Program-made: the position numbers and the translations under genes
The notes under the pieces: model-generated
What the model saw: the letters and a program-made list of their open reading frames with translations, nothing else
The model's database searches: none
Told to the model about the DNA's origin: nothing
In this document: positions 6,044-63,935 of the stretch, in pieces
Numbering within the stretch: position 1 is the first letter of the stretch
Layout: every line of letters starts with the position of its first letter
Source of the DNA: an uncultured Gammaproteobacteria bacterium
Lineage (GTDB): Bacteria; Patescibacteriota; Patescibacteriia; 2-01-FULL-39-33
DNA: 64,000 bases
Direction: 5' to 3'
Assembly: GCA_964558935.1 (NCBI GenBank)
Contig: CAZLFP010000003.1
Coordinates: 39,684-103,683 of the forward strand

Positions 6044-6062
6044 TTAAATAATTTAGATATTT

Positions 6063-6449: not shown

Positions 6450-6450
6450 T

Positions 6451-7521: not shown

Positions 7522-7539
7522 GAAATAAGCTAAAAAAAT

Positions 7540-8748
7540 ATGCCGGTATTTGAATATAAGGCGAAAAATCAAGCGGGGGAAGTGCAAGAGGGCTTAGTGG
7601 AGGCTGCCAGTGAAGAAGCGGTGGCTGTTTTGTTGGGGGATAAGAATCTGTCTGTCGTATCCATTACAGCCAAGGAAGAGGCGGGTTTAGGTGGCATCAG
7701 TCTGACGTTAACCAAGGTTAAGACCAAGGATTTGGTGGTGTTCTTTCGTCAATTATCTGTCATGGTGGAAGCTAATCTGCCGATTGTCAAAGCCATGCGG
7801 ATTTTGACTCGTCAAACAGACAACCGGTATTTAAAAGCTGTAATAGCCAGTATTGCGGATGAAGTCGAAGGTGGTGCCAAACTGTCTCAGGCCATGTCCA
7901 CATATCCGGAAGTGTTTTCCAATTTTTACACCAATGTGGTGGCCTCCGGTGAAACTTCCGGTCGTTTAAGTGATGTTATGAATTATTTGGCTGATCAGGC
8001 TGAAAAGGATTATGATTTAAAATCCAAACTGCAGGGTGAAATGATTTATCCGGCTTTTATTTTTGGCATGTTGGGCATTGTTGGTTTTGTGATCATGACT
8101 TGGGTAATACCTCAAATTACGGAAATGGTGACTCAATCCGGAGCTGAACTCCCGATTGCCACTCAGATTCTAATTGCCGTATCCAAGTTTTTTGGCAGTT
8201 ATTGGTGGGCAGTGTTGTTGGGTTTGGTTGGTTTGGGTGGAGGTCTGTTTTACTTCGTTAAAAAAACCGAAGGTGGCAAACAAATGTTTGACCAGCTGAT
8301 TGTCAACATTCCCATTTTTGGTTCTGTTTTCAGAATTATTTACATTGTTAGGATTACCCAGTCTTTCCATACGCTGTTGGTCGGTGGTGTACCTGTCTCT
8401 CAAGCCTTGGAAACGGTTAAGGAGGTTGTGGATAACGTGGTCTACAAAGCAGTCATTGAACAAGCCATTCAAGATGTGGATGAGGGTACTTCTTTAGCTG
8501 AAAGTTTAATTGTCAGCAAATACATTCCCAACATGGTGGCTCAAATGATCAGTATTGGAGAAGAAACAGGTAAATTAGACCAAATTTTAGGTAGAATTTC
8601 TGATTTTTATACCCGAGAGATTAATAATTCACTTAAGAATTTAACCTCTTTGATCACACCAATCATTATGGTGATCTTAGCGGTTGCGATCGGTGGTTTT
8701 GTGGCAGCTGTGATTATGCCGATGTGGCAGTTATCTGCTGCTTTCTAG
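7540..8748 (+). CDS. pilC: Type IV pilus inner-membrane platform protein PilC/GspF
   Basis: 402 aa with two GspF repeats and three TM segments, typical of the PilC/GspF family. Follows the ATPase genes. Confidence 0.9.
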   Translation: MPVFEYKAKNQAGEVQEGLVEAASEEAVAVLLGDKNLSVVSITAKEEAGLGGISLTLTKVKTKDLVVFFRQLSVMVEANLPIVKAMRILTRQTDNRYLKAVIASIADEVEGGAKLSQAMSTYPEVFSNFYTNVVASGETSGRLSDVMNYLADQAEKDYDLKSKLQGEMIYPAFIFGMLGIVGFVIMTWVIPQITEMVTQSGAELPIATQILIAVSKFFGSYWWAVLLGLVGLGGGLFYFVKKTEGGKQMFDQLIVNIPIFGSVFRIIYIVRITQSFHTLLVGGVPVSQALETVKEVVDNVVYKAVIEQAIQDVDEGTSLAESLIVSKYIPNMVAQMISIGEETGKLDQILGRISDFYTREINNSLKNLTSLITPIIMVILAVAIGGFVAAVIMPMWQLSAAF

Positions 8749-29996: not shown

Positions 29997-30005
29997 ACAT
30001 ATATT

Positions 30006-31088
30006 ATGGCAGGTGGCAAAAGCATGTTTTCCGCAGATATTTCTATCGGCGGAGTTAATTTAACTCAAAAGGCGTTGTTTGCCAAACATTTGGCAGTCAT
30101 GCTTCGGTCCGGACTGACCATTACCGAAGCTTTGGGTATTGCGGCAGATTCTTCGACCGGTAAAATGAAGCGAGTCTCGGCCAATCTGCTTAAGTCTGTG
30201 GAAGCCGGCAATCCCTTATCTGAAGCCATGCAAAGATTCCCCAAGGTTTTTTCCGGTTTGTTTGTATCTGCTGTGTATTCGGGTGAAGAATCCGGTACTT
30301 TGGAGGAAAATTTGGAAAACATAGCGGAACAGTTGGAGAAGCAAAAAGAGCTCAGTGGCAAGATCAAGGGTGCGATGCTGTATCCCATTGTTGTCTTAGT
30401 GGCTGCCTTTATATTGGGCATGGCCATGGCTTTCTTGGTTTTACCCAAAATTGTGCCTTTGTTTGAAGGCTTGAGAGTGGAACTGCCTTTTACAACCAAA
30501 GCTTTAATTTGGTTTGCTAAAATTGTGCAAGAACAGGGCTTATGGTTGTTTGGCGGTATTATAGTCGGAGTCATCTTTTTAATCTGGTTATTTCGTCAAA
30601 AGTTTACCCGTCCCATTTCTCATGGCTTAGCTCTGCGCTTTCCGGTGGTAAAAAGCATCACTCGCAATGCTAATTTATCTGAATTCTGCCGAACTTTGGG
30701 CACCTTGCTCAAATCCGGTCTCAATATTGATGAAGCCCTGAGGATAACCGGAGAAAGCTTGAACAATTACCATTACAAACGAGCAATTAAAAGCGTTACC
30801 GGTAGGGTGTCTAAGGGGACAAAGCTGTCAGATAATCTAAAAGCGCATGGTGATTTATTTCCCAAACTGGTCACGAGAATGATTAGGGTGGGTGAAGAAT
30901 CCGGCAAATTGGATGAAACTTTAACCTATTTGGCCGATTTTTATGACACGGAAGTGGAAATTGCCACCAAAACCCTGTCCACTGCCATTGAACCTATATT
31001 GTTGATTGTGATTGGTTTAATCGTTGGTTTTTTAGCTTTGTCTATTATTACCCCTATTTACCAAATCACCGGCAGTGTTAAACGTTAA
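30006..31088 (+). CDS. Second GspF/PilC-family platform protein
   Basis: 360 aa with two GspF repeats and three TM segments. Directly follows the ATPase. Confidence 0.85.
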   Translation: MAGGKSMFSADISIGGVNLTQKALFAKHLAVMLRSGLTITEALGIAADSSTGKMKRVSANLLKSVEAGNPLSEAMQRFPKVFSGLFVSAVYSGEESGTLEENLENIAEQLEKQKELSGKIKGAMLYPIVVLVAAFILGMAMAFLVLPKIVPLFEGLRVELPFTTKALIWFAKIVQEQGLWLFGGIIVGVIFLIWLFRQKFTRPISHGLALRFPVVKSITRNANLSEFCRTLGTLLKSGLNIDEALRITGESLNNYHYKRAIKSVTGRVSKGTKLSDNLKAHGDLFPKLVTRMIRVGEESGKLDETLTYLADFYDTEVEIATKTLSTAIEPILLIVIGLIVGFLALSIITPIYQITGSVKR

Positions 31089-31533
31089 AGATATGGCTAA
31101 AGGCTTTTCCATGGTCGAACTCTTAATTGTAATCGGTATTCTACTGATTATTTTTTTAGCTGCCATCCCGGTGTATGGTAATTTTCAAGCGTTGGCCCAA
31201 TTAAACAATACCACCAGCCAAATGGTGCAGAATATTAGAACCGCTAAGGGTTTGGCTGGGGTGAGATATAATAATTCTAGGCACGGAGTTAAGTTTTTCA
31301 ACAACAGTTATACCGTGTATCAAGGAGCAACCTATGCCGGTAGAGATACGGATTATGACAGAGTTTTTGATTTGGATGATGTTTTTAATCTGACCACTAC
31401 TCTGGCTTCGGATGAGGTTAATTTTAGAAGAGGATCGGGTTTGCCGGACAATACCGGTACCATAACTCTAGTGCATGATGTAGAAGGTACTAAACAGATT
31501 ACGATCAATGAATGGGGACTGATAGAAGAATAG
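31075..31533 (+). CDS. Pseudopilin / minor pilin
   Basis: Prepilin signal MAKG^FSMVELLIVIGILLI (E at +5). An alternative start is the ATG at 31093. Confidence 0.7.
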   Translation: MLNVKDMAKGFSMVELLIVIGILLIIFLAAIPVYGNFQALAQLNNTTSQMVQNIRTAKGLAGVRYNNSRHGVKFFNNSYTVYQGATYAGRDTDYDRVFDLDDVFNLTTTLASDEVNFRRGSGLPDNTGTITLVHDVEGTKQITINEWGLIEE

Positions 31534-31598
31534 GAGTTGGGTGTTTAGAAATTAAGCCATTTAGTTTCTAAATCCTGACTCTTAATTCACAACTGCGG

Positions 31599-34500
31599 AT
31601 GAGATTTTCAGTTTTTAACAGGTTAGTTAAAAACCACAATGGACAAGGTTTGTTGGAGGTTATTTTGGCTTTGGCCATTTTTTCTTTTATTGCAGCTGCG
31701 ATGATGAGCATGGCTCTCGGCGGATTTCAAGCATTGGAAAGAGGAGGAGAACAAACAGAAGCTGAAGCTTTGGCTCAAGAAGGACTGGAGGCGGTCAAGG
31801 CCATTCAAGAAAGAGCCTGGAATGAAATGGAGTATGGAGTCAGTGCCGTCTCCAATGTTTCTTCCCAGTGGGAGTTTGTGGGAGAAGGTACGACTGAAAA
31901 TATTGGTCAGTTTACCCGAACCATTACCATCGCTGATGTCTGTCGTGACGCTTCAGATAATATTGACACCTGCCCCAGCAATTATACGGATGAACATACC
32001 AAAAGAGTGATTGTGGAAGTGACTTGGGATACTCTTCAAGGCAATATCAATACTGTGCGGCAAGAAGGCTATCTTACCAATTGGGATTCTACAGACTGGA
32101 CTCAAACCGATTGGGTGGGTGGAGACGGACAATCTATTTGGAGCGATACCACTCAGTATGACACCGGTAGTAATGTGGATGATACAATTGCCGGTCAAAT
32201 TTCTTTGGCTGCTATTTTAGGTGATGGCTGCGGTTTAAAAGTATGGCCTTTTACGACTGCCGGCAATTATACGTACGATAGTCAAGACATTGAAGTAACC
32301 GGAGGCAATGCTCAATTGGTTGGAACCGTTGTGAGTGGTTCAATACAGGATTCAGGTTTTAATAATACCTCAGACACTGATTACAATTGGCCTTTTACGA
32401 CTGCCGGCAATTATACTTATGATTCAAACAAAATAACCGTAACCGGTGGAGCGGCACAGTTGTATGAAATTTCTGAAGTATGCCAAGGTACACCGGATCC
32501 TTGTGCGGGCATTGGAGTGCAGGGTACTTGTACTTCTCAGGGGGGTTGTTCTTGGGATCCGGCGGATTGTTCCGGATCTCCAACTGCCTGCGGCAGTTTG
32601 CCGGAAGGGGATTGTTCAGCCTGTGGCTGTTCTTTAGTGCCTGGTAATTGTAGCAACAATGGTGCATGTGGAGATAATGGCGCTGAAGGAGCTTGCACTA
32701 ATTGCAGTTGTGCCACTTGCAGTTGGGATGCCACTAGTTGTCCTTATGTGGAAGCTTGGGATGGACAGAAATGGGTTAAGGAACATGAAGCTTTTCCTTA
32801 TGCAGTATTTAAATCTGTTGTTAACACAACATATGATTCTCTACCAAGTTTAGCGTGTATTGATGGACACGCTAGGGTTAGGATTTATGAGAGTTTGCCA
32901 GAAATAACATATTTACAATATTTTCAAGTCTTCGCTGCCAAACAAACAGGTGGTTATATTAAACCTGATGTTGAGGGTAGACCTAGGGTTATGAATAATT
33001 GGAATAGTCCAGATTTTTGTATTACCTCCTTGGGTCAGTCAGGTCAAGATTGTTTAAATATAATCAAGGATCATGATGAAGAATTTTTTGAACCAGAAAT
33101 AGATAAATCTAAAATAGACGAATGGATTGAGATGGAATTTAGAGATGTGAAAAACGATGAAGCTAAGCTGTACTTGGTAGCTAGAAACCAGCAATTGATA
33201 GCTATTTATTATCAGTACATAGCTCATATTTTGGGTCGTAAGCAGGCAGATCTTTTTTCTGAGGTTTCAGCTTGGCCGGGTTTCTATCAGTTGACGAATA
33301 ATTGGTGGACCAATAGTCTTAAGGTTCAGGTTGAAGTTTGGGATGGCAGTAATTGGCAAAGACAAGGAGTAATATCTGCTGGTTTTCATATGCCGGGTAG
33401 TGGAGCTGATGATTTCTTAGTTAGTTTAAAGAAGTTAGATGATTCAAACAATTTAAAGGTTAGAATTCGTTTTATGTCTGGTGCCTACGGAATTGATTAT
33501 ATTGCTCTAGATGATAGTCTTGATCAAGAACTAGATATCAAAGCAGTCAATCCTAAAGAAATATATGTTAATGGAAAATTATCTGATGATTATTTGGTTT
33601 CTATTGGATATAATGAATATGTTGAATTGGTTTATGATTGCAATCTTGATGAAGATTATTATTTTGGTATTGGTGGTTATTATAATATAGATTTTTATGA
33701 TTCTAGTCGTCAAAAAGATCCGATTTCTGCCTGGTCTGAATTAATGGATTTATTTACAGGTGGAAAAAAATACTTAATACGTACCGCAGTTGATAAAGGT
33801 TTGTATAAAAAAGATAATTGTAATCAAAACTATACCACTGCTGAATTGGCTGCTCAGGCTCAGTTAAGTCCCATTGCATACGTCATATATTTTGAAATAC
33901 TGTTAATTCTGGTTTCAGGTATACTATTTATCGTTGGATATGATAGAAGAAGGTTAGTTATTGGATTTACCATTGGCACGACAATTACCATTGTTTTGTT
34001 ATATGGTTTTACAGTTGTTATTGCCGGCGGAACATGTGGTGGCACCTTAAATTGTTCCGGGTGTAATGAAACAGCTTGTAATTTATGTGCGACATGTACC
34101 TGGAATGCAGGATCATGTAGTGGAACACCAAGTGTTTGTACTACGCATAGCACAGAAGATCAGTGCTCAGATTGCGGATGTTCATGGGATGAGGCCAATT
34201 GTTTTGGTACTTCAAGTGTTTGTTCAACGTACGCAACTGAAGGCAACTGTAACGGACAGCAAGGCTGTATTTGGTCTGGTGAGTATGCGACCACTTCTCC
34301 AAGCATATATCCAACTAGCTCATATTCTGCCCCCGGTGTTTTTAGCTGGGACAGTTTTTCGGCAACAACCACCGTTAGCGGTTCTCCATTTGTGGATGAT
34401 GAATCTTCAGAATTTAATGGTGCCAAGAGCAACACTCAGTATGACTCTGCCAATTATTGGTTGGAATTAACATCTGCGGGTCAAACTGCCGGCAGCGGTA

Positions 34501-37500
34501 CCTATACTTCACCCATCCGCAATGTCGGAGCCAATGCATCATGGGATAGTATCGCTTGGATTCCCACCATGCCTTTTGGTAAAGAACTGCCCAATGGCGG
34601 TTCGGCTGAAACAGCCTATTTAATGGGTAACGTTGATATGTCAGACAATGTACTCCTTTTGCATCTGAGTGCCACTTCCACTTCTATTATTGATTGGTCA
34701 GGCAATGGCTATAATGGAACATACAATGGAGCCTTAACTGGTCAGACTGGAAAATTGAATGGTGCTTTAGGCTTTGACGGTACAGATGATATTGTGACTT
34801 TTACGTATAATTTGAATAGTACCTTGGGTGGTACTGCCTCACTTGCATTCTGGATTAATACCACAGACACCGGTAATAACAATGTTGCTGATGCTCCGGC
34901 AGTGACCGGTGTTGAAGAGTCGGGTGGAGATGATGATGTTTTTTGGGGTTCTTTAAATGCTTCCGGTAAGTTTGTTATTCAGGCAGGTAATACAGCCGGT
35001 GCAGTTAGTAGTACGACTATTAATGACGGCAGTTGGCATCACGTTGTTATGACCAGAAACTCCACCACGGGAGAGGTTAAAATATATGTTGATGGTGTTT
35101 TAGAAGATACGGCTATCTCAGATTTGGGAGTCAAGGGCAATGCGTTCTATACGATTGGCCGTTTAACCGATACCGGATTTCCAGCTAATCATTACTATTT
35201 ACAAGGCACTTTAGATGAACTGGCCATCTTTGATACTGTGATTGATGAGGATATGGTAATGGAATTATATAAACGAGGAGCCTTGAGAATTAAGTATCAG
35301 GTAAAGTCATGTAATGATAGCGGTTGTGTCGGAGAGTCTTTTATTGGACCTGATGGTACGACCGGTGATTATTACGATGAAACAGATAATACTACCAATG
35401 GGTTGCCAAGTCTAACTTTAACCAATGTGTCAGATAATCCATACTTTCAATACCGAGCGACTTTGGAAACGGACGATACTGCTTTAACTCCAGAGCTCAG
35501 AAGTTTTACGACTAACTATACCGGAGGAGGTTTAGCTAATGTCACTTATCAGTTATCAGATGATGATGGCACTACTTGGTACTATTGGGGTGGCTCATCT
35601 TGGGATGTAGCCGGAGCGTCCAATTCAAGCACAGAAGCTACAGTTGATGCTAACATTAGTGACTTTAGTACCAGTACGGAACAAATTAAATTTAAAGCCT
35701 TTCTAAACAGTGAAGGCACTCAGAATGTTGAACTGGATAATGTCTTCCTAGGCTTTACTCCCGGTGGCTCACCTTGGACATATAGTGACTGGGATGCCGG
35801 TGGTGGAGAAGTTAATCCGGATGGAACAATAGATGCCAGCGGAGGCAATCCGGGTTCGTTTGCCAAAATAACCGTTCCCAATGGTCAAAATGATGAATTG
35901 GGTGGCTATTTTGAACAAGCTTTTACCACCACGGTAGATAATCCTTCCGGTACCGTTGATTTTGACTATAAGATGATTGCTTTTAATGCCACGGCTAATG
36001 TGTCGCAAATTAGAATATTTGTAGATACTTCATCTGGTGCACCAACTAATCAGGTAGGTAGTTCAATAGATGTGACTAGTGCTGGAAACTGGACAAGTGC
36101 CTCTCAAATAGATATTTCTTCTGACTTGGGAACTGCAGGAACATACTATTTAAAAGTTGCCTATTGGGTTGAAACTCCAGGCGGTGGCGGAGGTGGTCCT
36201 TTTGTGGTTGGTTTTGACAATGTGGATTTAAACTGGACTTTAACTACATATCCGGATGATGAACCAACGATACAGCCAACCGAATCGTATGAGGGTCCTG
36301 GTGTTAATTTCTGGTCATCTTTCTCTGAAACTGCCACCAAAGGAACAGGGGAAATCTACTACCAACTTTCAGATGACGATGGTTCCAATTGGTATTATTG
36401 GGGTGGTTCTTCATGGGTCAGTGCCGGAGCTTCGAACTATAACACGGCTAGCGTAATTAATTCCAATATTGGCACTTTTAGCACTTCAACCGAAACTATT
36501 TTATTTAAAGCTTTCTTAGACAGCGATGGCACACAACAAGTTCAATTGGATCAGGTTGCCATCTATTGTTCCAAATTATATGATTGGCCTTTTTCTACGC
36601 CGGGAGATTATACCTATGATGACCAGAAGATAGAGGTAACCGGTGGTCAAGCTCAATTGGTTGAGTCTGGAGGATATGTTATTAGATCGACTGAGTACGC
36701 AATAACAGACTATACTGGTGTTACAGGAGAAATTACACTGACCAATGATTTATCCTCCAATTATTTTGTTATGGTTAAAGGTAGTGATGGTGATGGTACT
36801 GATACTGGTAATAGGGGTCCAGATGAAAACTATTTTGCTTTAACTTCAGATCCGTTTGGCACCGGAGATTTAGCTGTCACAGGAGAAAATAATACACTAG
36901 GCTTCACTCGCGGAGGTAATGTAGACGGCTGGACCGGTGTGATTACAGTCGTGGAGTGTTTAAATAATTGTTCATCAGATGGTTTTGAACTGTTAGATGT
37001 GGCCAGGGTGACCCACAGTGGAACAACTTTAACCGGTACAGACACTTTTACTAGCGGTTGGGGATCGGATATAGACCAGGTCATGTTATTTGGCGGATAT
37101 GATGGAGCAGGCTGTAATACCGCAGATACAGATAATTCAGATCATAAGGTCTGTCATGCTCGCATTTGGCCGTCAGGAACTAACACTATTAATTGGCAGA
37201 GAAACGATACGGATGTCAGCAGCATGACAACTGCCTATTCAACTGTTATGGCTTTAAAGTGGGGTAGTAATTGGACAGTTCAAAGAGTCACAGTTTCCGG
37301 CAGTGCCGGTGGTGCTGGTGCTAATGCCACCGGTGAGTACAATACTGCTACAATTAATTCTGTAGCTAGAGATAATACCTGGGTATGGGGAACTGGTTGG
37401 ACTAATGACCAGGGTATTGGCGATGCGTCCGAGGGTACCTTAATCACTCTTGGTGATGGAGTTAATCAAAATACCAATGAAACCAGTGTTGCAGTTGGTC

Positions 37501-38498
37501 AGGAGTATTCAGATACCAGAGAATTTGAAGTTTATGCTTTGACCCATGATGATATTTCTGTGGATTATCGGTTTAAAGCAGATGGCAATGGTGCAGATTT
37601 AACTTATGATCAAACTGTTGATACAGCTGCCAGTTCTACAGCTAGAATGGCTTTGGGGTATAATACCTGTAATGGTACTGGTGATGCTTATCCTCGTCCC
37701 ATTTTTTCAGCCAGATATACTTCAAATACCAATATTCAACTACTCAGAAATCGTTGGAATCAAGCTTTTGTGGCCTGGACCCAGAGTATTGATTTCTCCG
37801 GTATTAATAAGCCAATTACCTATCCCTCGGATGATCCGACCATCCAACCCAGTGCTTTCTATAATCTAGGAGGTGTAAGTGAGTTAACTGCTTTTGAGGA
37901 AACAGCCAATAAAGATGGGGGAGAGATATATTATCAGTTATCCAATAATAACGGAGCCACCTGGTTATACTGGGGAGGATCAAATTGGACCACAGCTGGG
38001 GCTTCAGACTATAATACAGCCAGTGTGGTCAATACTAATATTGGAAGTTTTCCCACTTCAACCACTCAATTCCTATTCAAAGCTTTCTTGAGTGGTAATG
38101 GTTCTCAACAAGTGGCTTTAGATAATGTTAGAATCTTTTGGGGTGAAGATGCCGGAGGTGGAGGTTCAGTCGGTTATGAGACCAGTGGTTTTTTGGTGTC
38201 TTCAGCCTTGGACATGGGAGACGCATCTCCGGTGCAAGTCATTGAATGGAGCGAAGACAGACCGGCTGATACTGAAATCAAGCTACAAGTTAGAACTGCA
38301 CCGGACAGTGGTGGCAGTCCCGGTACTTGGACAGATTGGTTTGGAGAAACAGGATCTGGTACTTTTTTTACAACCACCAGTCCTACCTTAATACCAACCA
38401 CCATTAATGCTAACCAGTGGTTGCAGTACAGAGCCGAATTAAGTGGAGATGGCACGGTAACTCCTGTGTTATATGATATAAATCTTAATTACAAATAA
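31599..38498 (+). CDS. Giant (2,299-aa) modular pseudopilin-like surface protein: prepilin-type N-terminus, Cys-rich modules, an AT-rich insert with a TM hairpin, a LamG/ConA-like lectin domain and triplicated ~100-aa repeats
   Basis: A single uninterrupted ORF. The N-terminus NG^QGLLEVILALAIFSFIAAAMMSMAL has E at +5 followed by a hydrophobic alpha1 helix. A LamG-type motif set spans ~34870-35350 (LAFWINT...SWHHVVMTRN...IYVDGVL...LDELAIFDTV). Three YYQLSDDDG.WYYWGGSSW...FKAFL...G.Q.V.LD.V repeats. Embedded in the second filament locus. Confidence 0.85.
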   Translation: MRFSVFNRLVKNHNGQGLLEVILALAIFSFIAAAMMSMALGGFQALERGGEQTEAEALAQEGLEAVKAIQERAWNEMEYGVSAVSNVSSQWEFVGEGTTENIGQFTRTITIADVCRDASDNIDTCPSNYTDEHTKRVIVEVTWDTLQGNINTVRQEGYLTNWDSTDWTQTDWVGGDGQSIWSDTTQYDTGSNVDDTIAGQISLAAILGDGCGLKVWPFTTAGNYTYDSQDIEVTGGNAQLVGTVVSGSIQDSGFNNTSDTDYNWPFTTAGNYTYDSNKITVTGGAAQLYEISEVCQGTPDPCAGIGVQGTCTSQGGCSWDPADCSGSPTACGSLPEGDCSACGCSLVPGNCSNNGACGDNGAEGACTNCSCATCSWDATSCPYVEAWDGQKWVKEHEAFPYAVFKSVVNTTYDSLPSLACIDGHARVRIYESLPEITYLQYFQVFAAKQTGGYIKPDVEGRPRVMNNWNSPDFCITSLGQSGQDCLNIIKDHDEEFFEPEIDKSKIDEWIEMEFRDVKNDEAKLYLVARNQQLIAIYYQYIAHILGRKQADLFSEVSAWPGFYQLTNNWWTNSLKVQVEVWDGSNWQRQGVISAGFHMPGSGADDFLVSLKKLDDSNNLKVRIRFMSGAYGIDYIALDDSLDQELDIKAVNPKEIYVNGKLSDDYLVSIGYNEYVELVYDCNLDEDYYFGIGGYYNIDFYDSSRQKDPISAWSELMDLFTGGKKYLIRTAVDKGLYKKDNCNQNYTTAELAAQAQLSPIAYVIYFEILLILVSGILFIVGYDRRRLVIGFTIGTTITIVLLYGFTVVIAGGTCGGTLNCSGCNETACNLCATCTWNAGSCSGTPSVCTTHSTEDQCSDCGCSWDEANCFGTSSVCSTYATEGNCNGQQGCIWSGEYATTSPSIYPTSSYSAPGVFSWDSFSATTTVSGSPFVDDESSEFNGAKSNTQYDSANYWLELTSAGQTAGSGTYTSPIRNVGANASWDSIAWIPTMPFGKELPNGGSAETAYLMGNVDMSDNVLLLHLSATSTSIIDWSGNGYNGTYNGALTGQTGKLNGALGFDGTDDIVTFTYNLNSTLGGTASLAFWINTTDTGNNNVADAPAVTGVEESGGDDDVFWGSLNASGKFVIQAGNTAGAVSSTTINDGSWHHVVMTRNSTTGEVKIYVDGVLEDTAISDLGVKGNAFYTIGRLTDTGFPANHYYLQGTLDELAIFDTVIDEDMVMELYKRGALRIKYQVKSCNDSGCVGESFIGPDGTTGDYYDETDNTTNGLPSLTLTNVSDNPYFQYRATLETDDTALTPELRSFTTNYTGGGLANVTYQLSDDDGTTWYYWGGSSWDVAGASNSSTEATVDANISDFSTSTEQIKFKAFLNSEGTQNVELDNVFLGFTPGGSPWTYSDWDAGGGEVNPDGTIDASGGNPGSFAKITVPNGQNDELGGYFEQAFTTTVDNPSGTVDFDYKMIAFNATANVSQIRIFVDTSSGAPTNQVGSSIDVTSAGNWTSASQIDISSDLGTAGTYYLKVAYWVETPGGGGGGPFVVGFDNVDLNWTLTTYPDDEPTIQPTESYEGPGVNFWSSFSETATKGTGEIYYQLSDDDGSNWYYWGGSSWVSAGASNYNTASVINSNIGTFSTSTETILFKAFLDSDGTQQVQLDQVAIYCSKLYDWPFSTPGDYTYDDQKIEVTGGQAQLVESGGYVIRSTEYAITDYTGVTGEITLTNDLSSNYFVMVKGSDGDGTDTGNRGPDENYFALTSDPFGTGDLAVTGENNTLGFTRGGNVDGWTGVITVVECLNNCSSDGFELLDVARVTHSGTTLTGTDTFTSGWGSDIDQVMLFGGYDGAGCNTADTDNSDHKVCHARIWPSGTNTINWQRNDTDVSSMTTAYSTVMALKWGSNWTVQRVTVSGSAGGAGANATGEYNTATINSVARDNTWVWGTGWTNDQGIGDASEGTLITLGDGVNQNTNETSVAVGQEYSDTREFEVYALTHDDISVDYRFKADGNGADLTYDQTVDTAASSTARMALGYNTCNGTGDAYPRPIFSARYTSNTNIQLLRNRWNQAFVAWTQSIDFSGINKPITYPSDDPTIQPSAFYNLGGVSELTAFEETANKDGGEIYYQLSNNNGATWLYWGGSNWTTAGASDYNTASVVNTNIGSFPTSTTQFLFKAFLSGNGSQQVALDNVRIFWGEDAGGGGSVGYETSGFLVSSALDMGDASPVQVIEWSEDRPADTEIKLQVRTAPDSGGSPGTWTDWFGETGSGTFFTTTSPTLIPTTINANQWLQYRAELSGDGTVTPVLYDINLNYK

Positions 38499-38992
38499 TG
38501 AATAAAGGCTTTACTTTAGTTGAATTAATCATTTACATTGCCATTATTGGTCTCATGGTGGTGTCTTTTGCTACTTTTAGCATTGCCATCTCAGATTCAA
38601 GAGAAAAGTCATATGTCGTGTCAGAAGTCCATCACAATTTAAGGGATCCGTTTACCTTAATGACTAAGAGAGCCAGGTTTGCCAGTAGCGTAGTTACACC
38701 AACAGCCGGTAATTCTTCTACCACTCTGGAGTTAGACATGCCGGGAGCCAGTCCTAATTTAACCTTTAAAGTCATTGATGATATCTTAACTGTGCAAGAA
38801 GGAGTCGGTACACCCGTCGCTGTGACCAGTGACGAGGTTCAAGTCACTGAGTTAGCTTTTACCAATTATGCCAGTCCCGGCTTAAGATCCAATTTAAAAA
38901 TCGAGTATACGGTTGAATATGCTCATGAAGATGGAGATCCCATCTATACTTATGACAAAAGCATTGAAACCACAGTCAGAGTTAGAAAATAA
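38498..38992 (+). CDS. Pseudopilin / minor pilin
   Basis: Prepilin signal MNKG^FTLVELIIYIAIIGL. Its start overlaps the stop of the giant gene. Confidence 0.75.
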   Translation: MNKGFTLVELIIYIAIIGLMVVSFATFSIAISDSREKSYVVSEVHHNLRDPFTLMTKRARFASSVVTPTAGNSSTTLELDMPGASPNLTFKVIDDILTVQEGVGTPVAVTSDEVQVTELAFTNYASPGLRSNLKIEYTVEYAHEDGDPIYTYDKSIETTVRVRK

Positions 38993-38993
38993 T

Positions 38994-39401
38994 ATGAATA
39001 TTTTAAACAATCAAAAGGGAATAGCGGCTTTTCTGGTGATTGTGATGATTTCGGCCGTAGCTTTAATTATGGCATATTCAGCAGCTATCTTAGGTTTGGG
39101 TGAAATTGAAATGGGTTTTGACTCGCAACAAGGCGGACAGGCTTTTGCCCTTGCCGATGGTTGTATTGAAGAAGCCATGCGCAGATTGAGATTGGACACT
39201 GATTACACAGGCAGTTCTTTGAGTTTTGGAGCCAATTCCTGTATAATTAGTGTAACCGGAGCTGGCAGTAATCGTACTATATATACTACCAGTACTGTTG
39301 GTGAATATTATAAAAAGATTGAAGCTCAAGTTTCTTTTACAGACAGTCCGACAACTGGTGTAGTTTTAAGTTTAGACAGTTGGGAAGAAAGCGATCAATA
39401 G
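38994..39401 (+). CDS. PilX-like minor pilin
   Basis: N-terminus MNILNNQKGIAAFLVIVMISAVALIMAYSAAILGLGEI is PilX/GspK-like. Start chosen at 38994, because the track start at 38913 would overlap the previous gene by 80 nt. Confidence 0.55.
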   Translation: MNILNNQKGIAAFLVIVMISAVALIMAYSAAILGLGEIEMGFDSQQGGQAFALADGCIEEAMRRLRLDTDYTGSSLSFGANSCIISVTGAGSNRTIYTTSTVGEYYKKIEAQVSFTDSPTTGVVLSLDSWEESDQ

Positions 39402-39406
39402 CAGAC

Positions 39407-40750
39407 ATGTTACAATACGGCCAACAATCTGTAGGTATCGATATTTCAGATCAAACCATTGAGGTGGCTGAAATTCTTAGTGGTTTTCGCAAAAAAATCA
39501 CGAGCTTGGGTCAAAGAAAATTACCAACCGGTTTGGTGGAAAGGGGTAGAATAAAAGATGTCAAAGCTTTAACCAAGGAATTGGATGCCTGTTTCAAACA
39601 AGCCAAACCCAAACCCATTAATTATCGACGAGCTGTTTTTTCTTTGCCGGAAAGCCAAGTTTATACGCATGATTTTATCCTTAAGGAAGCTAACAAAAAG
39701 AAATGGGAGGATCTGATCAAACAAGAAGCACTGGCTAATTTTCCCATTCCTGAGAATGATTTGGTTTATGCCTATACCATACTCACTCACAACAAGCAAG
39801 GAGCCACGGTTTTGTTGGCAGCCAGCAGTTACCAAGTGATTAATGAATGGCGAGCATTCTTTCGACAAGCTAAAATCCGAGTTGATTATTTTGCGGTTGA
39901 AGCTTTGGCTATCTTCAGAGGTTTGTTTGTCGGTGGTGTTAAAGAGCCGGTGGCTATAATTGATTTGGGAGCTTATACAACTTTAATCTCTATCTTTGAC
40001 AAACATGGTTTGGAATTCACTTATTCCGTGAATACAGCCGGCAACAGATTGAACAGTGAAATTGCCAAAGCTCTTAATATAGGTCAGGATCAAGCTGAAA
40101 AAATGAAGATTAAGCTGGGTCTTACAGATCCGGACAGCCAGGTTTTCAATGTTATTTTAAAGACTTTGGAGAAAATTACAAGAGGTATTGATGTGTCTGT
40201 GGATTACTACCAGAACAAGTCAGGTCAACAAATAAAAAAAGCGGTGTTAATTGGGGGTACGAGCCGATTAAAAGGCTTATTGGAATACTTTCAGAGTAAT
40301 TTAGAGTATGAGGTACAATTGGGTTCATCCAAATTGTTTAAAACCCATAAACTGGACTTGGGCTATATTGAAGCCATTGGTTTGGCCAATATTGGATTAA
40401 AAGAAAAATGGTTGAAAAAAGACCCGGTCTTTGTATTAAAAGATGTTAAAAAACCGTCAAAAAAGTCTAAATCTAGCGGAAAAAAAGCGGGAAAAAAGAC
40501 TCGGGATGTTGAGTCGATGTCTAGCGAGTATTATACTCTTGAGGATCAGGAAATTGAATTTGAAGCGAAAAAATTGCGCCGACAACAGATTACTTTTTTA
40601 ATTATTGTTATCATTGGAGCGATCGCTATCAGTTTGGCTTTTTGGTACCAGAATGAACAGAAGAAAAAGAAAGCCCAGGAATATGAACAGCAACTGGAAA
40701 CTTTTTTGGAAGATCGGCAGCGTGAGATTCAGTACAATATTGAACAGTAG
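39407..40750 (+). CDS. PilM-like actin-fold assembly protein fused to a Lys-rich linker and a C-terminal TM anchor (PilM-PilN-like fusion)
   Basis: N-terminus SVGIDISDQTIEVAEI matches the PilM fold. C-terminus has KKPSKKSKSSGKKAGKK followed by a TM (ITFLIIVIIGAIAISLAFWY) and a coiled coil. No separate pilN or pilO in this locus. Confidence 0.75.
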   Translation: MLQYGQQSVGIDISDQTIEVAEILSGFRKKITSLGQRKLPTGLVERGRIKDVKALTKELDACFKQAKPKPINYRRAVFSLPESQVYTHDFILKEANKKKWEDLIKQEALANFPIPENDLVYAYTILTHNKQGATVLLAASSYQVINEWRAFFRQAKIRVDYFAVEALAIFRGLFVGGVKEPVAIIDLGAYTTLISIFDKHGLEFTYSVNTAGNRLNSEIAKALNIGQDQAEKMKIKLGLTDPDSQVFNVILKTLEKITRGIDVSVDYYQNKSGQQIKKAVLIGGTSRLKGLLEYFQSNLEYEVQLGSSKLFKTHKLDLGYIEAIGLANIGLKEKWLKKDPVFVLKDVKKPSKKSKSSGKKAGKKTRDVESMSSEYYTLEDQEIEFEAKKLRRQQITFLIIVIIGAIAISLAFWYQNEQKKKKAQEYEQQLETFLEDRQREIQYNIEQ

Positions 40751-40831
40751 TGGATAATTTAGGACATTTGCTTGTATTTTAAACTGTGTTATAATATAAT
40801 TAACATAAATATTAGAAATAAGTTTGCTACT

Positions 40832-41323
40832 ATGAAAAAAACTGGTTTTACCTTAATTGAATTATTAATTGTGATTGCCATTATTGCAATTATCGCAGCT
40901 GTGGCTTTTGTGGCTTTGGATCCTCTAACACGTTTTAGAGACTCAAGAGATTCAGCCAGATGGTCTGATGTAACGGCTATGTTATCTGCGATTGTGGTTG
41001 ATCAGGTTGACAATGGAGGTAATTATCTCTGGTCGATTCAAAATGCGACAACGGCGACAAATGTTATGATCAGCAATGCTACCACTACCACTGGTTGTAA
41101 TGCCACTGCTTGTGATACAGCCGTAACCAGTACAGCTGCTTGCATTAACATGCAAGGCTTGGTGGATGAGGGTTATCTGGGCACTATGCCAGTTAGTCCG
41201 AACGGCAGCGGCAGCTGGGATTCCGCTTTAACCGGTTATTATTTGACCAAGAACACGAATGGCTCGATTACAATCACGGCATGCGAAGCTGAGAATTCCG
41301 GTACAATCAGTTTGACAAGGTAA
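40832..41323 (+). CDS. Type IV pilin paralog 1 (Thr/Ala/Asn-rich globular domain, three Cys in the C-terminal half)
   Basis: Prepilin signal MKKTG^FTLIELLIVIAIIAII. Start chosen at 40832, not the track start at 40772. Preceded by an AT-rich promoter-like region. Confidence 0.85.
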   Translation: MKKTGFTLIELLIVIAIIAIIAAVAFVALDPLTRFRDSRDSARWSDVTAMLSAIVVDQVDNGGNYLWSIQNATTATNVMISNATTTTGCNATACDTAVTSTAACINMQGLVDEGYLGTMPVSPNGSGSWDSALTGYYLTKNTNGSITITACEAENSGTISLTR

Positions 41324-41339
41324 GAAATTTATAATCTAA

Positions 41340-41852
41340 ATGCGGAGGCTTAAGGATCAAAGAGGTTTAACTTTAATAGAGCTGCTAGTCGTTGTAACGA
41401 TATTGGGTATACTAGCAGCTGCTATTTTTGTGGCTTTAAATCCGGTTAAATTGTTTAAAGACTCCAGAGACGTGGTCAGAAGGCAGGATGTGGAAACGAT
41501 TCTAACGGCAATTGGTTTGTACCAGGTTAACAGCGGAGGTATTAATCCGACCGAGATTCAGGGTTTAACTGCGGGTCGAGTGTATATGATCACCGACGGA
41601 GCCCAAGCCACCGGCTGTGATGATTACGGAACCAATGGCTGTGATACCGAGGTATACGGTGATAGTTATTGTGCTGATTTGGATGAATTGGTGGATAATG
41701 GCTATTTGGGCGATATTCCGATCAGTCCCACCGGCACGACCACTTGGTCTGAAGACATGACCGGTTACACGATTGAAAAATCATCCAACGGCAACATCTT
41801 CATTCGAGCCTGTGAATCTGAAAGCGGAGATGAAATTTGGGTAGTAAGATAA
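41340..41852 (+). CDS. Type IV pilin paralog 2
   Basis: Prepilin signal QRG^LTLIELLVVVTILGILAAAIFVALNP. Shares DSRD, GLYQV and C-terminal GYLGDIPISPTGTTTWSEDMTGYTIEK blocks with paralog 3. Confidence 0.85.
   Translation: MRRLKDQRGLTLIELLVVVTILGILAAAIFVALNPVKLFKDSRDVVRRQDVETILTAIGLYQVNSGGINPTEIQGLTAGRVYMITDGAQATGCDDYGTNGCDTEVYGDSYCADLDELVDNGYLGDIPISPTGTTTWSEDMTGYTIEKSSNGNIFIRACESESGDEIWVVR
41703..41770 (+). repeat. 68-nt exact repeat (copy 1) shared by pilin paralogs 2 and 3
   Basis: TATTTGGGCGATATTCCGATCAGTCCCACCGGCACGACCACTTGGTCTGAAGACATGACCGGTTACAC is identical to 42199-42266. Confidence 0.9.
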
Positions 41853-41853
41853 T

Positions 41854-42348
41854 ATGAATACAAAAGGTTTAACTTTAATTGAATTATTGATCGTGGTGGC
41901 CATTTTGGCCATTTTGGCTTCAATTATTTTTTTAGCTTTGAATCCGGTTAAGAGATTCCAAGATTCTCGCGATGCGGTTAGAGCTGAAGATATTGAGAAT
42001 ATCATTAATGCCATTGGTTTGTACCAGGTGGATAATGGTGGTATTTTGCCGTCTGAAATTCAAGGTTTGACAGCTGACAGAGTGTATATGATTACCGACG
42101 GAGATGAAACCAGCGGTTGTGATGATTATAATGATTGCGATACGGAGGTGTATGCAGATAACTACTGTGCTGATTTGGATATTTTAGTCACGGAAGGTTA
42201 TTTGGGCGATATTCCGATCAGTCCCACCGGCACGACCACTTGGTCTGAAGACATGACCGGTTACACAATTGAAAAGACAGCAGCCGGTAATATTTTTATT
42301 CGTGCTTGTGAATCTGAGGGCGGGGATGAGCTTTGGTTATCCAGATAA
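41854..42348 (+). CDS. Type IV pilin paralog 3
   Basis: Prepilin signal NTKG^LTLIELLIVVAILAILASIIFLALNP. C-terminal 26 aa are identical to paralog 2 (24-codon conversion tract, two silent differences). Confidence 0.85.
   Translation: MNTKGLTLIELLIVVAILAILASIIFLALNPVKRFQDSRDAVRAEDIENIINAIGLYQVDNGGILPSEIQGLTADRVYMITDGDETSGCDDYNDCDTEVYADNYCADLDILVTEGYLGDIPISPTGTTTWSEDMTGYTIEKTAAGNIFIRACESEGGDELWLSR
42199..42266 (+). repeat. 68-nt exact repeat (copy 2)
   Basis: Identical to 41703-41770. Flanks diverge except for about 10 further nt with two mismatches. Confidence 0.9.
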
Positions 42349-61498: not shown

Positions 61499-61522
61499 TT
61501 GACAGCCTGTTTTTTTATTGTT
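61499..61522 (+). terminator. Rho-independent terminator
   Basis: ACAGGCT-TGAC-AGCCTGT hairpin followed by a T-run. Confidence 0.8.
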
Positions 61523-61557
61523 ACAGTAATAATACCAACTAAAATAGTAGGAATTAT

Positions 61558-61965
61558 ATGTTATTTACGACAAAAACTGAATATGGTATGCGGGCTATGG
61601 TGGAATTGGCTAAAAAAGCCAGTCAAGATCAACCCTTGCCTGTTTCGCAAATTGCTCGTGACCAACATTTGTCTCAAGCCTACTTGGAAAGATTATTTGC
61701 CAAATTGAAAGCGGATGGCTTGATTATGAGCACTAAAGGTTCGGGTGGTGGATATTATTTGGCTCGTCCTCCCAAACAGATTAATATCTTTGAAATCATT
61801 GAGGCTTTGGACGGTCCACTGATGGTTTTTTCCTGTATTTCTGAAGATGAGAATAAACTGGCTTGTTCCGCTAAAAATTGTTTGACCAAGCAAGTTTGGC
61901 ATGAATTGCAAAAGCAGATTATTCACACCTTGCGTCAGTTTACATTAAAAGATTTAGTTAATTAA
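61558..61965 (+). CDS. Rrf2-family transcriptional regulator (IscR-like)
   Basis: N-terminal winged-helix (LFTTKTEYGMRAMVELAK...PLPVSQIARDQHLSQAYLERLFAKLKADGLI) and a Cys cluster (FSCISEDENKLACSAKNC). Heads an iscU/nfu/iscS operon. Confidence 0.85.
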   Translation: MLFTTKTEYGMRAMVELAKKASQDQPLPVSQIARDQHLSQAYLERLFAKLKADGLIMSTKGSGGGYYLARPPKQINIFEIIEALDGPLMVFSCISEDENKLACSAKNCLTKQVWHELQKQIIHTLRQFTLKDLVN

Positions 61966-61968
61966 ACT

Positions 61969-62358
61969 ATGTATACAGACAAGGTTTTAGATCATTTTCA
62001 CCATCCCAGGAACCAGGGTCGCATTCAAGCAGCAGATGGCATTGGTCAGGTAGGCAATCCGGTGTGCGGTGATGTGATGAAAATATATATTAAGGTAAAA
62101 GACCAGCCAGAGCCGGTTATTCAGGACATTAAATTTGAAACTTTGGGTTGTGGAGCAGCCATTGCCACGTCCTCCATGCTCACAGAGATGGTCAAAGGAC
62201 AAACCATTCAGCAGGCTCTGAAGATCAGTAAAACACAAATTGCTCAAGAGTTGGGTGGGTTACCGCCAGCCAAGTTGCATTGCTCGGTACTGGCTCACGA
62301 TGCCCTGCGTGAAGCCATTTTGGATTACCAGTCAAAAAATAATTATAAATATGCCTAA
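61969..62358 (+). CDS. iscU: Fe-S cluster assembly scaffold IscU/NifU-like
   Basis: The three conserved Cys (NPVCGDVM, LGCGAAIA, KLHCSVLAHDAL). 129 aa. Confidence 0.9.
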   Translation: MYTDKVLDHFHHPRNQGRIQAADGIGQVGNPVCGDVMKIYIKVKDQPEPVIQDIKFETLGCGAAIATSSMLTEMVKGQTIQQALKISKTQIAQELGGLPPAKLHCSVLAHDALREAILDYQSKNNYKYA

Positions 62359-62506
62359 ACAAACAACAGTACACAGGCAAGAGTGCGAAATTTATTCACG
62401 AGTTGTCGGCTATTTACGGCCAACCCAGAGCTGGAATGCCGGTAAACAGGCTGAATTTCATGATCGCAGTGTGTACCAGGCCAAAACCACAACCAATCAT
62501 AAATAA
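62351..62506 (+). CDS. 51-aa ORF resembling the extreme C-terminal glycyl-radical segment of the anaerobic ribonucleotide reductase NrdD (candidate spare-part protein or gene remnant)
   Basis: MPKQTTVHRQECEIYSRVVGYLRPTQSWNAGKQAEFHDRSVYQ matches the RVxGYL...NxGKxxE...R glycyl-radical tail of NrdD. Lacks the Zn ribbon and catalytic body. Overlaps the iscU stop by 8 nt. Track ORF 62240..62506 trimmed to the ATG at 62351. Confidence 0.5.
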   Translation: MPKQTTVHRQECEIYSRVVGYLRPTQSWNAGKQAEFHDRSVYQAKTTTNHK

Positions 62507-62511: not shown

Positions 62512-62739
62512 ATGGAAGATAAGATTAAAGCAGCTTTAGATCAACTAAGGCCTCATTTGCAAATGGACGGGGGAGATGTAGACTTTGTATCTTTTGATCA
62601 AGAGCAAGGTATTTTAAAATTAAAATTGCAAGGCGCTTGTCAAGGCTGTCCCATGTCTCAGATTACCTTGCAGGAAGGCATTGGCAAAGTTTTAAAACAA
62701 GACATGCCTGAGATTAAACAAGTCATAGCTGTCACTTAA
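62512..62739 (+). CDS. NifU-like (Nfu-type) Fe-S cluster carrier domain protein
   Basis: 75 aa with a CxxC motif (GACQGCPMS) and a typical Nfu C-terminal domain (LRPHLQMDGGDVDFVSF). Confidence 0.8.
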   Translation: MEDKIKAALDQLRPHLQMDGGDVDFVSFDQEQGILKLKLQGACQGCPMSQITLQEGIGKVLKQDMPEIKQVIAVT

Positions 62740-62741
62740 AT

Positions 62742-63935
62742 ATGCCTGATACAGACCTGATATACTTAGACAATGCAGCCACCACTCAAATGGATGACCG
62801 CGTCATGTCAGCAATGCTGCCGTATTTAACAACCGAGTATGGCAATGCTTCTTCTTTGCATTCTGCCGGTTTAAACAACCGGGTGGCAGTAGATCGATCT
62901 CAGGCACTCATTGCCGCTTACCTGGGTGTAAATAAGGATGAAGTGTTTTTTACTTCTGGTGCGACTGAGAGTAATAATTTGGCGCTTTGGGGAGTGGTTA
63001 AAGCCTTGCAAACCAAACACAGCCAGATCCATATTATTACCTCTGCCATTGAGCATGACGCTGTTTTGGAACCGTGCCAGGCTTTAGAAAAACAGGGCAT
63101 AGCGGTGACCTATTTGCCTGTTAATAGTCGAGGTGTAGTCAGTCTGGAAGCTATTAAAAAAGCTATTCGACCACAGACTCGCTTGATTTCAATCATGTAC
63201 GTCAACAATGAAATCGGCACCATTCAGCCGATTGCACACATTGGACGTTTGGTTAGTCAATTGAATGCCGAGAGAAAAAACCAAATCTACTTACATACGG
63301 ATGCCACCCAAGCGTTAAATGCCTGTTCTTGTCGGTTGACTGATTTAAAGGTGGATTTAATGTCATTTTCCGGGCATAAGATATATGGTCCCAAAGGAAT
63401 TGGTGTTCTGTATTTGAAAAAGGGTACACCCTTGATTCCTTTGTTCTATGGCGGACATCAGCAACATAATGTCCGGCCGGGTACTTACAACGTGCCAGGT
63501 ATTGTTGGCTTGGCTGAAGCGATTAAAATACTACAACAACCTCAGCACCAAGCGGAAATAGATAAGATTCAGACAATTAAAAGATACTTAATAGACCAGT
63601 TGCAAGCTAAAATTCCTCAGGTTAGACTCAATGGTGATGTTACTAAATCCATACCTCATATTTTAAACTTAAGTTTTCTTGGCGTGGAAGGAGAGAGTTT
63701 GTTGCTTATGCTGTCAAAACAAAAAATAGCAGTCTCGACAGGATCTGCTTGTTCGGCCGGTTCTTTAAAACCCTCCCATGTTTTAACGGCTTTGGGTTTG
63801 AAGCCGGAAGTCGCTCATGGTAGCCTGCGTATGAGTTTGGGCAGATTTAACCGGTTAAGCCAGGCTAGACAATTAGTTCGAGTCTTGCCCCCCTTGGTAG
63901 CTAAATTGAGAAGCATGTCGCCTTTAGCCGATTAA
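62742..63935 (+). CDS. iscS: Cysteine desulfurase (class V aminotransferase, IscS/NifS-like)
   Basis: PLP-Lys motif SFSGHKIYGPKGIGVLY and catalytic Cys loop STGSACSAGS. 397 aa. Confidence 0.9.
   Translation: MPDTDLIYLDNAATTQMDDRVMSAMLPYLTTEYGNASSLHSAGLNNRVAVDRSQALIAAYLGVNKDEVFFTSGATESNNLALWGVVKALQTKHSQIHIITSAIEHDAVLEPCQALEKQGIAVTYLPVNSRGVVSLEAIKKAIRPQTRLISIMYVNNEIGTIQPIAHIGRLVSQLNAERKNQIYLHTDATQALNACSCRLTDLKVDLMSFSGHKIYGPKGIGVLYLKKGTPLIPLFYGGHQQHNVRPGTYNVPGIVGLAEAIKILQQPQHQAEIDKIQTIKRYLIDQLQAKIPQVRLNGDVTKSIPHILNLSFLGVEGESLLLMLSKQKIAVSTGSACSAGSLKPSHVLTALGLKPEVAHGSLRMSLGRFNRLSQARQLVRVLPPLVAKLRSMSPLAD

Follow-up and report, generated by a model that had tools for sequence, protein, structure and literature searches.

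A free-standing NrdD-type glycyl radical tail in an Fe-S assembly operon, probably a separately encoded part of class III ribonucleotide reductase

Why would an operon for iron-sulfur (Fe-S) cluster assembly carry, packed between its scaffold gene and nfu, a gene of only 51 codons that resembles the extreme C-terminus of an anaerobic ribonucleotide reductase (RNR)? The question is raised by a 64,000-nucleotide stretch of DNA from an uncultured bacterium of the Patescibacteriota (GenBank assembly GCA_964558935.1, contig CAZLFP010000003.1, positions 39,684 to 103,683 of the forward strand), which was analysed whole and is referred to here as the window. The gene, a free-standing NrdD-type glycyl radical tail, lies at 62351..62506 on the plus strand (51 codons plus TAA, with the ATG at 62351). 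Our answer, to which we give a probability of roughly 70%, is that it encodes a trans-acting glycyl radical tail of a class III RNR, the core of which would be encoded elsewhere in the genome.

What identifies so short a product? The translation of 62351-62506 is a protein of 51 amino acids (aa), MPKQTTVHRQECEIYSRVVGYLRPTQSWNAGKQAEFHDRSVYQAKTTTNHK, which matches the Pfam family NRDD (PF13597) with an E value of 1.8e-10 and 40.6 bits (gathering threshold 26.2), tail residues 10-42 falling on model positions 531-562 of 562, i.e. on the last 32 positions. The NCBIfam NrdD model TIGR02487 is matched with an E value of 3.2e-9 at positions 549-579 of 581, and further NCBIfam NrdD models match the tail solely through their extreme C-terminal ends. 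When the tail was used as a single sequence to search the sequences of the PDB, the NrdD of Prevotella copri was the sole match (E 0.022); in the alignment with this structure (8p23), tail residues 15-41 pair with residues 710-737, placing G20-Y21 on the radical Gly711-Tyr712. The predicted radical glycine, Gly20, has the GGC codon at 62408..62410 (+), and it stands in the invariant motif SRVVGY, in an invariant alignment column that aligns with Gly711 of P. copri NrdD (PMC11226230). Both the radical motif RVxGY and the downstream N.GK..E...R are present (SRVVGYLRPTQSWNAGKQAEFHDR), and all 16 residues that are invariant in an alignment of the short homologues are retained. These 16 columns define a conserved core from Cys12 to Arg39, CEIYSRVVGYLRPTQSWNAGKQAEFHDR (62384..62467, +), which would form a buried Gly loop and a short helix. 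Judged by sequence comparison, the product resembles the C-terminal end of NrdD far more closely than chance would allow. A tryptic peptide of the protein is VVGYLRPTQSWNAGK.

Just as characteristic is what the 51 residues do not contain. The catalytic barrel with its finger-loop cysteine is absent, TIGR02487 reaching 35.9 bits vs a cutoff of 326 and the other NrdD equivalog models 13-32 bits vs cutoffs of 545-764, below threshold in every case. A structural Zn site (CxxC/CxxH ... CxxC) is absent too: the tail has a single cysteine, C12, with 11 residues before it. A Pfam scan to an E value of 1 returned NRDD alone, with no match to Gly_radical (PF01228). In other words, the architecture is that of a minimal split-type tail, without a Zn ribbon and with 11 residues ahead of the conserved Cys, and the N-terminal part (…HRQECEIY) resembles split-type tails such as MSPIKTKRQECEIY. 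AlphaFold2 modelling of the isolated tail gave a predicted local distance difference test score (pLDDT) of 59, a predicted template modelling score (pTM) of 0.16 and only one helix, residues 25-32, corresponding to helix 723-730 that follows the Gly loop in P. copri NrdD; the model hints that the tail may not be an autonomous fold and may be largely unfolded alone. The GC content (0.442) and the GC content at third codon positions (GC3, 0.404) equal the genome's coding mean. The tail protein is missing from a collection of 15 billion proteins in which its three neighbours are present, and was therefore never called as a gene there. With regard to the lone cysteine, which sits eight residues before the radical glycine (G-8; tail residue 12, 62384-62386), about 85-90% of the tails in each category retain it, and Thr takes its place in the extra-copy proteins and some full-length NrdD enzymes. 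The cysteine was considered as a candidate fourth Zn ligand given in trans; bearing on this role are the C, H, C and C that the cores already carry and the Thr at G-8 in some full-length proteins.

Is this tail one of a kind? A word-index search of 5.8 billion proteins with the window tail returned 18 homologues, all of 41-90 aa, with the common motif CE[IV][YWF]SRVVGYLRPxxxWNxGKQAEFxDR, and a profile of short tails run against 1.84 billion cluster representatives (E up to 1e-3) gave 5055 matches; among the best 150 of these, 148 are 42-149 aa long and only one is a full-length NrdD. No dedicated family model for the short tail was found in Pfam, NCBIfam or PHROGs, where there are only partial NrdD C-terminal matches. 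The motif that we propose for a split subunit of 40-150 aa, E[VI][YWF]SRVVGY..P...WN.GK..E...R with its own start codon, is found in the window tail.

Loci from species-representative genomes, metagenomes and viral contigs were then classed by tblastn with the NrdD core, the activase NrdG and isc proteins. Four arrangements emerge, in counts that are biased because the 80 loci most similar to the short query were kept per set: (A) an ordinary full-length nrdD followed by nrdG (39 in the genome set, 30 in the metagenome set); (B) a core open reading frame (ORF) ending after the Zn ribbon, then a tail gene of 40-90 aa, then nrdG (25 and 23); (C) a full-length nrdD, a second tail gene of 86-92 aa with its own Zn ribbon, and nrdG (2 and 3); and (D) an orphan tail, with core and nrdG not within the flanks (13 and 16). 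Orphan tails make up 72 of the 80 best loci in the viral set. The window tail belongs with the orphans, as do those of L023 and L092, rather than between an nrdD core and nrdG. The position-by-position consensus is the same in resident, split, extra-copy, cellular-orphan and viral-orphan tails, and the tail closest to that of the window over the 31-aa core (81%) is from a phage contig, L007.

Where might the rest of the enzyme be? The window organism appears closest to a clade within the candidate phyla radiation (CPR) in which NrdD is encoded by two genes. We collected 58 split loci, in each of which the tail has its own ATG. The spacing from core to tail ranges from -4 (an overlap) to +199 nucleotides (nt), the frame of the tail differs from that of the core in 40 of the 58, and 32 cores stop at TAA, 21 at TGA and 5 at TAG. 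It is the core that retains the Zn ribbon, with the ending ...CPxHGY...CPxC; split cores share the ending CPxCDxE[IM]GY followed by a short variable tail, and this shared, distinctive ending argues for the split being an old, inherited state. Of the 120 closest NrdD homologues of a Falkowbacteria-type core (68-100% identity; from Falkowbacteria, Kuenenbacteria, Buchananbacteria, Uhrbacteria, Parcubacteria and other Patescibacteria), 119 lack RVxGY and end in CPxCDEE[MI]GY, so a separately encoded tail would be the normal subunit in this clade. Other origins of the split were considered and rejected. A scan of nine split loci with the longer gaps found no Rfam family, introns included; an intron or recoding was rejected on the basis of this null result, of TAA as the commonest core stop and of the differing frames. 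A split intein is ruled out by the extensions on either side of the split, which are too short, and an alternative code reading UGA as Gly, as a general explanation, by the core stop-codon counts.

The Falkowbacteria and Buchananbacteria provide examples of the two-gene layout. The tail gene sits between core and nrdG in Buchananbacteria MHHZ01 and in Falkowbacteria MFGJ01, and in the public annotations of the three CPR genomes checked (the window source, MHHZ01 and MFGJ01) the tail genes are uncalled (62351-62506 in the window, 8092-8232 in L259 and 8191-8343 in L260), which leaves their NrdD, as annotated, without a radical site. Because tails of about 50 aa go uncalled, metabolic reconstructions list an NrdD that would be dead alone. 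On Falkowbacteria contig MFGJ01000007.1, nrdR is found with a tail-less core, tail A and nrdG, and a second tail, B, lies about 178 kb away within mraZ-rsmH-tailB-ftsL. Tails A and B are 74% identical and share LSPVxRWNKGKKAE; their proportion of nonsynonymous differences (pN) is 0.15 and that of synonymous differences (pS) is 0.86, which is saturated, so they are old paralogues that are both maintained. No NrdR box was found upstream of the CPR tail B.

Two side observations concern the integrity of nrdD itself. In a non-CPR bacterium, a tail ORF of 57 aa shares 56 nt with an nrdD ORF that is read in another frame (L008 3696-5850, L009 and L010). The overlap looks like a frameshift, is seen on 24 contigs and may be either a programmed frameshift or a true split; genes for Nfu, hemerythrin, an HD protein, Rrf2 and a protein resembling rubrerythrin lie nearby. 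Additionally, insertions of about 1 kb are frequent in NrdD genes of the clade, either in-frame and intein-like or interrupting the tblastn match (L051, L135 and L138, with 1061-aa ORFs; L016, L022, L037, L106, L141, L145 and L159), and for the in-frame, intein-like kind one homologue has a precomputed PF14890 match. In this clade, nrdD looks like a hot spot of mobile insertion.

Are free-standing tails maintained, and are they regulated as parts of an RNR? Arrangement C is informative on the first point. In L055, L144 and L149 the spare tail shows 100% identity to the resident one over 31 aa, while pS between the two is 0.39-0.72; the corresponding pair in L085 has 87% identity and saturated pS. 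Identity of spare and resident despite synonymous divergence would be expected if both fit the same core and activase, and substitution patterns such as these indicate that free-standing tails are under purifying selection. On the second point, Desulfobacterota orphan genes of 105-166 aa encode the tail together with an N-terminal helix and a Zn ribbon of their own (CHDC...KCxxC), and 6 of 18 genes of this type have NrdR-box palindromes upstream (L026, L031, L045, L048, L062 and L075), 3 of the 6 as tandem pairs 31 nt apart; these tails lie far from any nrdD. The background is 0.017 boxes per 370 nt. The consensus used is the one that we take to be that of the NrdR box, and its use is supported by full-length nrdD and nrdR as positive controls: the same box layout lies upstream of 16 of 69 full-length nrdD genes and of nrdR. 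Some free-standing tails are, by their predicted boxes, members of the NrdR regulon. Elsewhere among the orphans, a Smithellaceae tail gene follows a rubrerythrin gene and an Rrf2-like region (L083 3182-4619), another association with oxidative stress.

In the window, the tail is embedded in a compact operon on the plus strand. The first gene encodes an Rrf2-family regulator with clustered cysteines, C-x9-C-x4-C (61558..61965; PF02082 E 2.7e-39; 111.8 bits to the IscR model TIGR02010, below its cutoff). It is followed by a NifU_N/IscU-type Fe-S scaffold gene immediately upstream of the tail (61969..62358; PF01592 E 1.9e-50; TIGR03419 187.6 bits), by the tail, by the gene for Nfu, the NifU C-terminal domain, which starts 5 nt after the tail stop (62512..62739, ATG at 62512; PF01106 E 3.5e-26), and by a NifS/IscS-type class V cysteine desulfurase, the last operon gene within the window (62742..63935; PF00266 E 3.4e-80; TIGR03402 E 4e-137). 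The desulfurase is 100% identical to database protein P0019, and its best named matches are from Patescibacteria, Buchananbacteria and Falkowbacteria. The start codon of the tail overlaps the nifU/iscU stop codon by 8 nt, ATGCCTAA (62351..62358, +), an arrangement typical of translational coupling. A consensus scan found one good candidate promoter for the tail-containing operon, a TG-extended TTGACA-17-TACAGT upstream of the Rrf2 gene (61499..61527, +; 10/12 matches, a consensus match only), and no promoter-like or terminator-like site between iscU and nfu; the tail appears to be co-transcribed with Rrf2, nifU, nfu and nifS. Could the tail stand in for the middle [2Fe-2S] domain of NifU (TIGR02000), which occupies the same position in the gene order? 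This candidate was rejected, since the tail has one Cys and homology to NrdD only.

The first-pass annotation of this DNA had read the same 51-aa ORF directly from the sequence, and had described a match to the extreme C-terminus of NrdD around the radical glycine, a lack of Zn ribbon and barrel, an 8-nt overlap with the iscU stop and an nfu start 5 nt downstream. The ORF is as described, Pfam, NCBIfam and the 8p23 alignment agree on the match, the stated lack holds for the 51-aa product, and both distances are borne out. A chance match of a short motif, which had been entertained, is ruled out by the alignment with NrdD C-termini, in which the similarity is real. The Fe-S neighbours were also correctly named, with the refinement that scaffold and desulfurase are of NifU/NifS-like type.

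Elsewhere in the window the genes are compact and lie mostly on one strand. Type IV pilus genes form two clusters, at about 27-8748 and 28305-42348, and within the second is a 2299-aa ORF without a Pfam match (31599-38498).

How might such a tail work? We propose that a peptide of about 6 kDa, largely unfolded on its own, would be activated by NrdG, a radical-SAM activase with a [4Fe-4S] cluster, which would abstract a hydrogen from Gly20. The Gly loop would dock in the barrel of a tail-less NrdD core (ATP-cone, barrel and Zn ribbon) encoded elsewhere, and the docked radical would be passed on to the active-site cysteine. Oxygen would then destroy the small subunit alone, which could be replaced cheaply without remaking the 680-aa core. 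In the cryo-electron microscopy analysis of P. copri NrdD, the glycyl radical domain is a mobile rigid body able to leave the barrel (PMC11226230), which makes a non-covalent version plausible. The operon context would add a layer of control: the supply of the tail would be tied to Fe-S assembly through the promoter of a cysteine-rich Rrf2 regulator of the Fe-S-sensing type. Lying between nifU and nfu under this promoter, the tail would be made with the Fe-S machinery that the NrdG cluster needs, and oxidative or Fe-S stress would be the same conditions in which glycyl radicals are lost. Is the window copy the sole tail gene, displaced from nrdD, or an additional one? We slightly favour a second copy, because the Falkowbacteria contig has core, tail and nrdG together plus an orphan tail B, although this is an argument by analogy.

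Several observations weigh against a trans-acting tail. The nrdD core and nrdG are absent from the 64-kb window by tblastn, so the partner is one that we infer; an RNR of any other class was not found in the window either (tblastn, Pfam). A Shine-Dalgarno sequence is not evident before the tail, and the neighbouring genes lack one too, and the box scan found no NrdR box upstream of the window operon. We know of no class III RNR for which activation by NrdG and docking in trans have been demonstrated. Additionally, in the three nearest syntenic relatives retrieved, IscU abuts Nfu and a tail is undetectable. These relatives, with IscU 69-71% and IscS 58-61% identical to those of the window, keep the neighbourhood (pyrG, L27, lipoprotein, C39-like peptidase, Rrf2, NifU_N, Nfu and IscS), so the tail is present patchily at this site, and the isc operon does not require it. 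The sole further case of a tail embedded in an isc operon, on metagenome contig L092, comes from a contig of 2x coverage with a chimeric-looking left half.

What does L092 contribute nonetheless? It carries the C-terminus of IscU, a tail 56% identical to that of the window and the start of Nfu, and the two tails differ with pN 0.29 and pS 0.82 (saturated). Its divergence from the window is about the same as that of the tail-less syntenic relatives. In its region 2767-4416, a truncated pheT (with fabI and fabH upstream) is joined to the last 28 iscU codons, followed by tail and nfu; the join is probably a chimeric assembly, and since the left half looks chimeric, we rely only on the right end of the contig. 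The first-pass annotation had reasoned that absence of the ORF from close relatives would tell against it, and the relatives answer in both directions: the nearest syntenic ones are without the tail, but L092 keeps the order IscU-tail-Nfu. Taken together, they suggest an insertion that is lineage-restricted but maintained. As for how a tail could have reached this site, nrdD-(tail)-nrdG lies directly beside iscS-iscU-nfu in five CPR loci (L103, L141, L155, L128 and L027); with the two gene sets so often neighbours, a simple route into the isc operon would be available.

Which other explanations could account for the gene? An unlikely one, which nevertheless fares best among the rivals, is that the tail is a decoy or regulator that competes for either NrdG or the barrel of NrdD and thereby throttles or protects RNR, or buffers radicals, or that it has a role in Fe-S assembly. 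Its location in an isc rather than an nrd operon, without an NrdR box, would suit such a role, and phage orphans that come without core or activase would also suit an inhibitor used in host takeover. However, the conservation pattern is the same as in catalytic tails, radical Gly and Tyr included, and the cores of the clade are tail-less, so some tail must be catalytic. A single cysteine makes an Fe-S ligand role unlikely, and extra copies are identical to the resident tail, as expected of a replacement part.

Less probable again is that the gene is a non-functional leftover, the 3' end of a degraded or rearranged nrdD that landed between iscU and nfu and is open by chance. The nearest syntenic relatives do without a tail, nrdD and nrdG are not nearby in the window, and the tail has never been called as a gene, all of which a remnant would explain. 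It would not explain a start codon coupled exactly to the iscU stop and an end 5 nt before nfu, nor 16 invariant residues intact despite fast divergence (IscS is about 60% identical to the nearest relatives), nor the native composition; L092 keeps the same arrangement with pN well below pS, and hundreds of comparable short genes are under the same constraint. The first-pass annotation had offered three ideas, a spare part, a degraded nrdD and a fragment separated by rearrangement. The degraded nrdD is disfavoured by the intact invariants, the composition and the pN and pS values of L092. The spare part and the separated fragment were each partly right, and they merge into a separately encoded radical subunit in light of the 119 tail-less cores among 120; extra tails away from nrdD do exist beside a core-tail-nrdG set (MFGJ01000007.1), but the likeness to GrcA that had accompanied the spare-part idea is an analogy only.

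Slightly more doubtful still is a selfish or hitch-hiking element, in which the highly conserved nrdD 3' end, acquired horizontally and of no benefit to the host, was spread by homing endonucleases or phages. NUMOD3 or HNH genes recur beside phage orphan tails, the most similar tail over the 31-aa core is the phage one of L007 (81%), and the distribution among relatives is patchy. In the window, however, no endonuclease gene or trace of a mobile element flanks the exactly packed tail, and neither GC nor GC3 departs from the genome mean. L092 conserves the tail, and hitch-hiking, which may explain the spread in phages, would account for arrival but not for persistence. Finally, a fusion of IscU and tail by +1 frameshifting at the 8-nt overlap is very improbable: the ORFs do overlap, with the tail in the +1 frame relative to iscU, but L092 has the iscU stop apart from the tail ATG, coupling in split loci ordinarily takes the form of ATGA or ATGxxTAA overlaps, no slippery motif is evident, and all homologues start at their own ATG.

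How does a trans-acting NrdD tail compare with known systems? The closest likeness is to GrcA/YfiD of E. coli and Y06I of phage T4, which, like the window tail, are small free-standing proteins consisting essentially of a glycyl radical domain. GrcA/YfiD is thought to be activated by the own activase of pyruvate formate-lyase (PFL) and to replace the PFL radical domain, with T4 Y06I as the phage version, and by analogy both the loci with an extra tail between nrdD and nrdG and the orphan tails fit this spare-part logic. The differences are that GrcA is homologous to the C-terminus of PFL whereas the window tail is homologous to NrdD, and that GrcA rescues a damaged full-length PFL, whereas the core of the CPR clade is made tail-less, which probably makes the tail an obligate subunit. 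According to a 2026 review, formate lyases are the only enzymes with known spare parts, and whether other glycyl radical enzymes have them is "yet to be determined" (PMC13450708). In the split class II NrdJa/NrdJb of Pseudomonas aeruginosa, structurally the nearest precedent among RNRs, an RNR chain is likewise encoded as two genes with a separate C-terminal module (PMC9669993); however, that enzyme is B12-dependent, its two genes are adjacent whereas the window tail is in an unrelated operon, and NrdJb carries reducing cysteines with Zn-finger and IscU-like domains rather than the radical site. Canonical NrdD (T4 Gly580, E. coli Gly681, P. copri Gly711) shares RVxGY...WN.GK..E...R, the short predicted helix and the Tyr after the Gly with the window tail, but there the tail is a covalent part of a 600-750 aa chain, after the Zn ribbon, and not a protein of 51 aa without one. 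The class Ia NrdA of Aeromonas phage Aeh1 is reportedly split into two ORFs by the homing endonuclease MobE and still active. The homing-endonuclease link recalls the NUMOD3/HNH genes beside phage tails; the Aeh1 split, however, is a single known case in class Ia and lies inside the catalytic body, whereas the CPR clade is split at the radical domain. In the searchable literature, which leaves many subscription-journal papers outside, we found neither a split class III RNR nor a spare part of NrdD type described.

The viral tails deserve a word of their own. Phage orphan tails come without core or activase. Phage and prophage orphans are found in replication modules after an AAA_24 ATPase gene (L007 2434-3264; L059 8990-10147; L101 5269-6890), often flanked by NUMOD3, DUF559 or HNH endonuclease genes. 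Archaeal virus ANMV-1 (KP703175.1, 25525-25959) encodes a 144-aa protein with an N-terminal helix, a Zn ribbon and the tail, and its 38.5-kb genome lacks both an NrdD core and NrdG. The protein is annotated as "anaerobic ribonucleoside triphosphate reductase" and has been taken as an oxygen-sensitive RNR that indicates an anaerobic host (PMC4372165); by its domain content, a tail-only protein was misread in that publication as a complete oxygen-sensitive RNR.

What would these findings mean for the wider family? The sequences suggest a whole CPR clade with a two-chain class III RNR. The broadest form of the proposal, which we regard as evenly balanced, is that class III RNR consists of two polypeptides in a large part of the CPR, as well as in some archaea and phages, and bears its glycyl radical on a replaceable cartridge of about 50 aa, uncalled by annotation pipelines, and that extra cartridges are spare parts, located in Fe-S or oxidative-stress operons including that of the window, in cell-division operons, in the NrdR regulon, and alone in many phages and at least one archaeal virus. 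If this is true, the extra tails would be the first spare parts for a glycyl radical enzyme other than PFL. The collected sequences point to NrdD-type radical domains that are encoded alone and are under purifying selection, some of them in the NrdR regulon and others beside a full-length nrdD whose tail they copy exactly. The finding should be of interest to RNR and glycyl radical specialists alike. Orphan tails carried by phages would represent a new type of auxiliary gene, one that acts on the deoxynucleotide supply of the host, and the spare-part question for other glycyl radical enzymes would become directly testable with a defined and very small protein.

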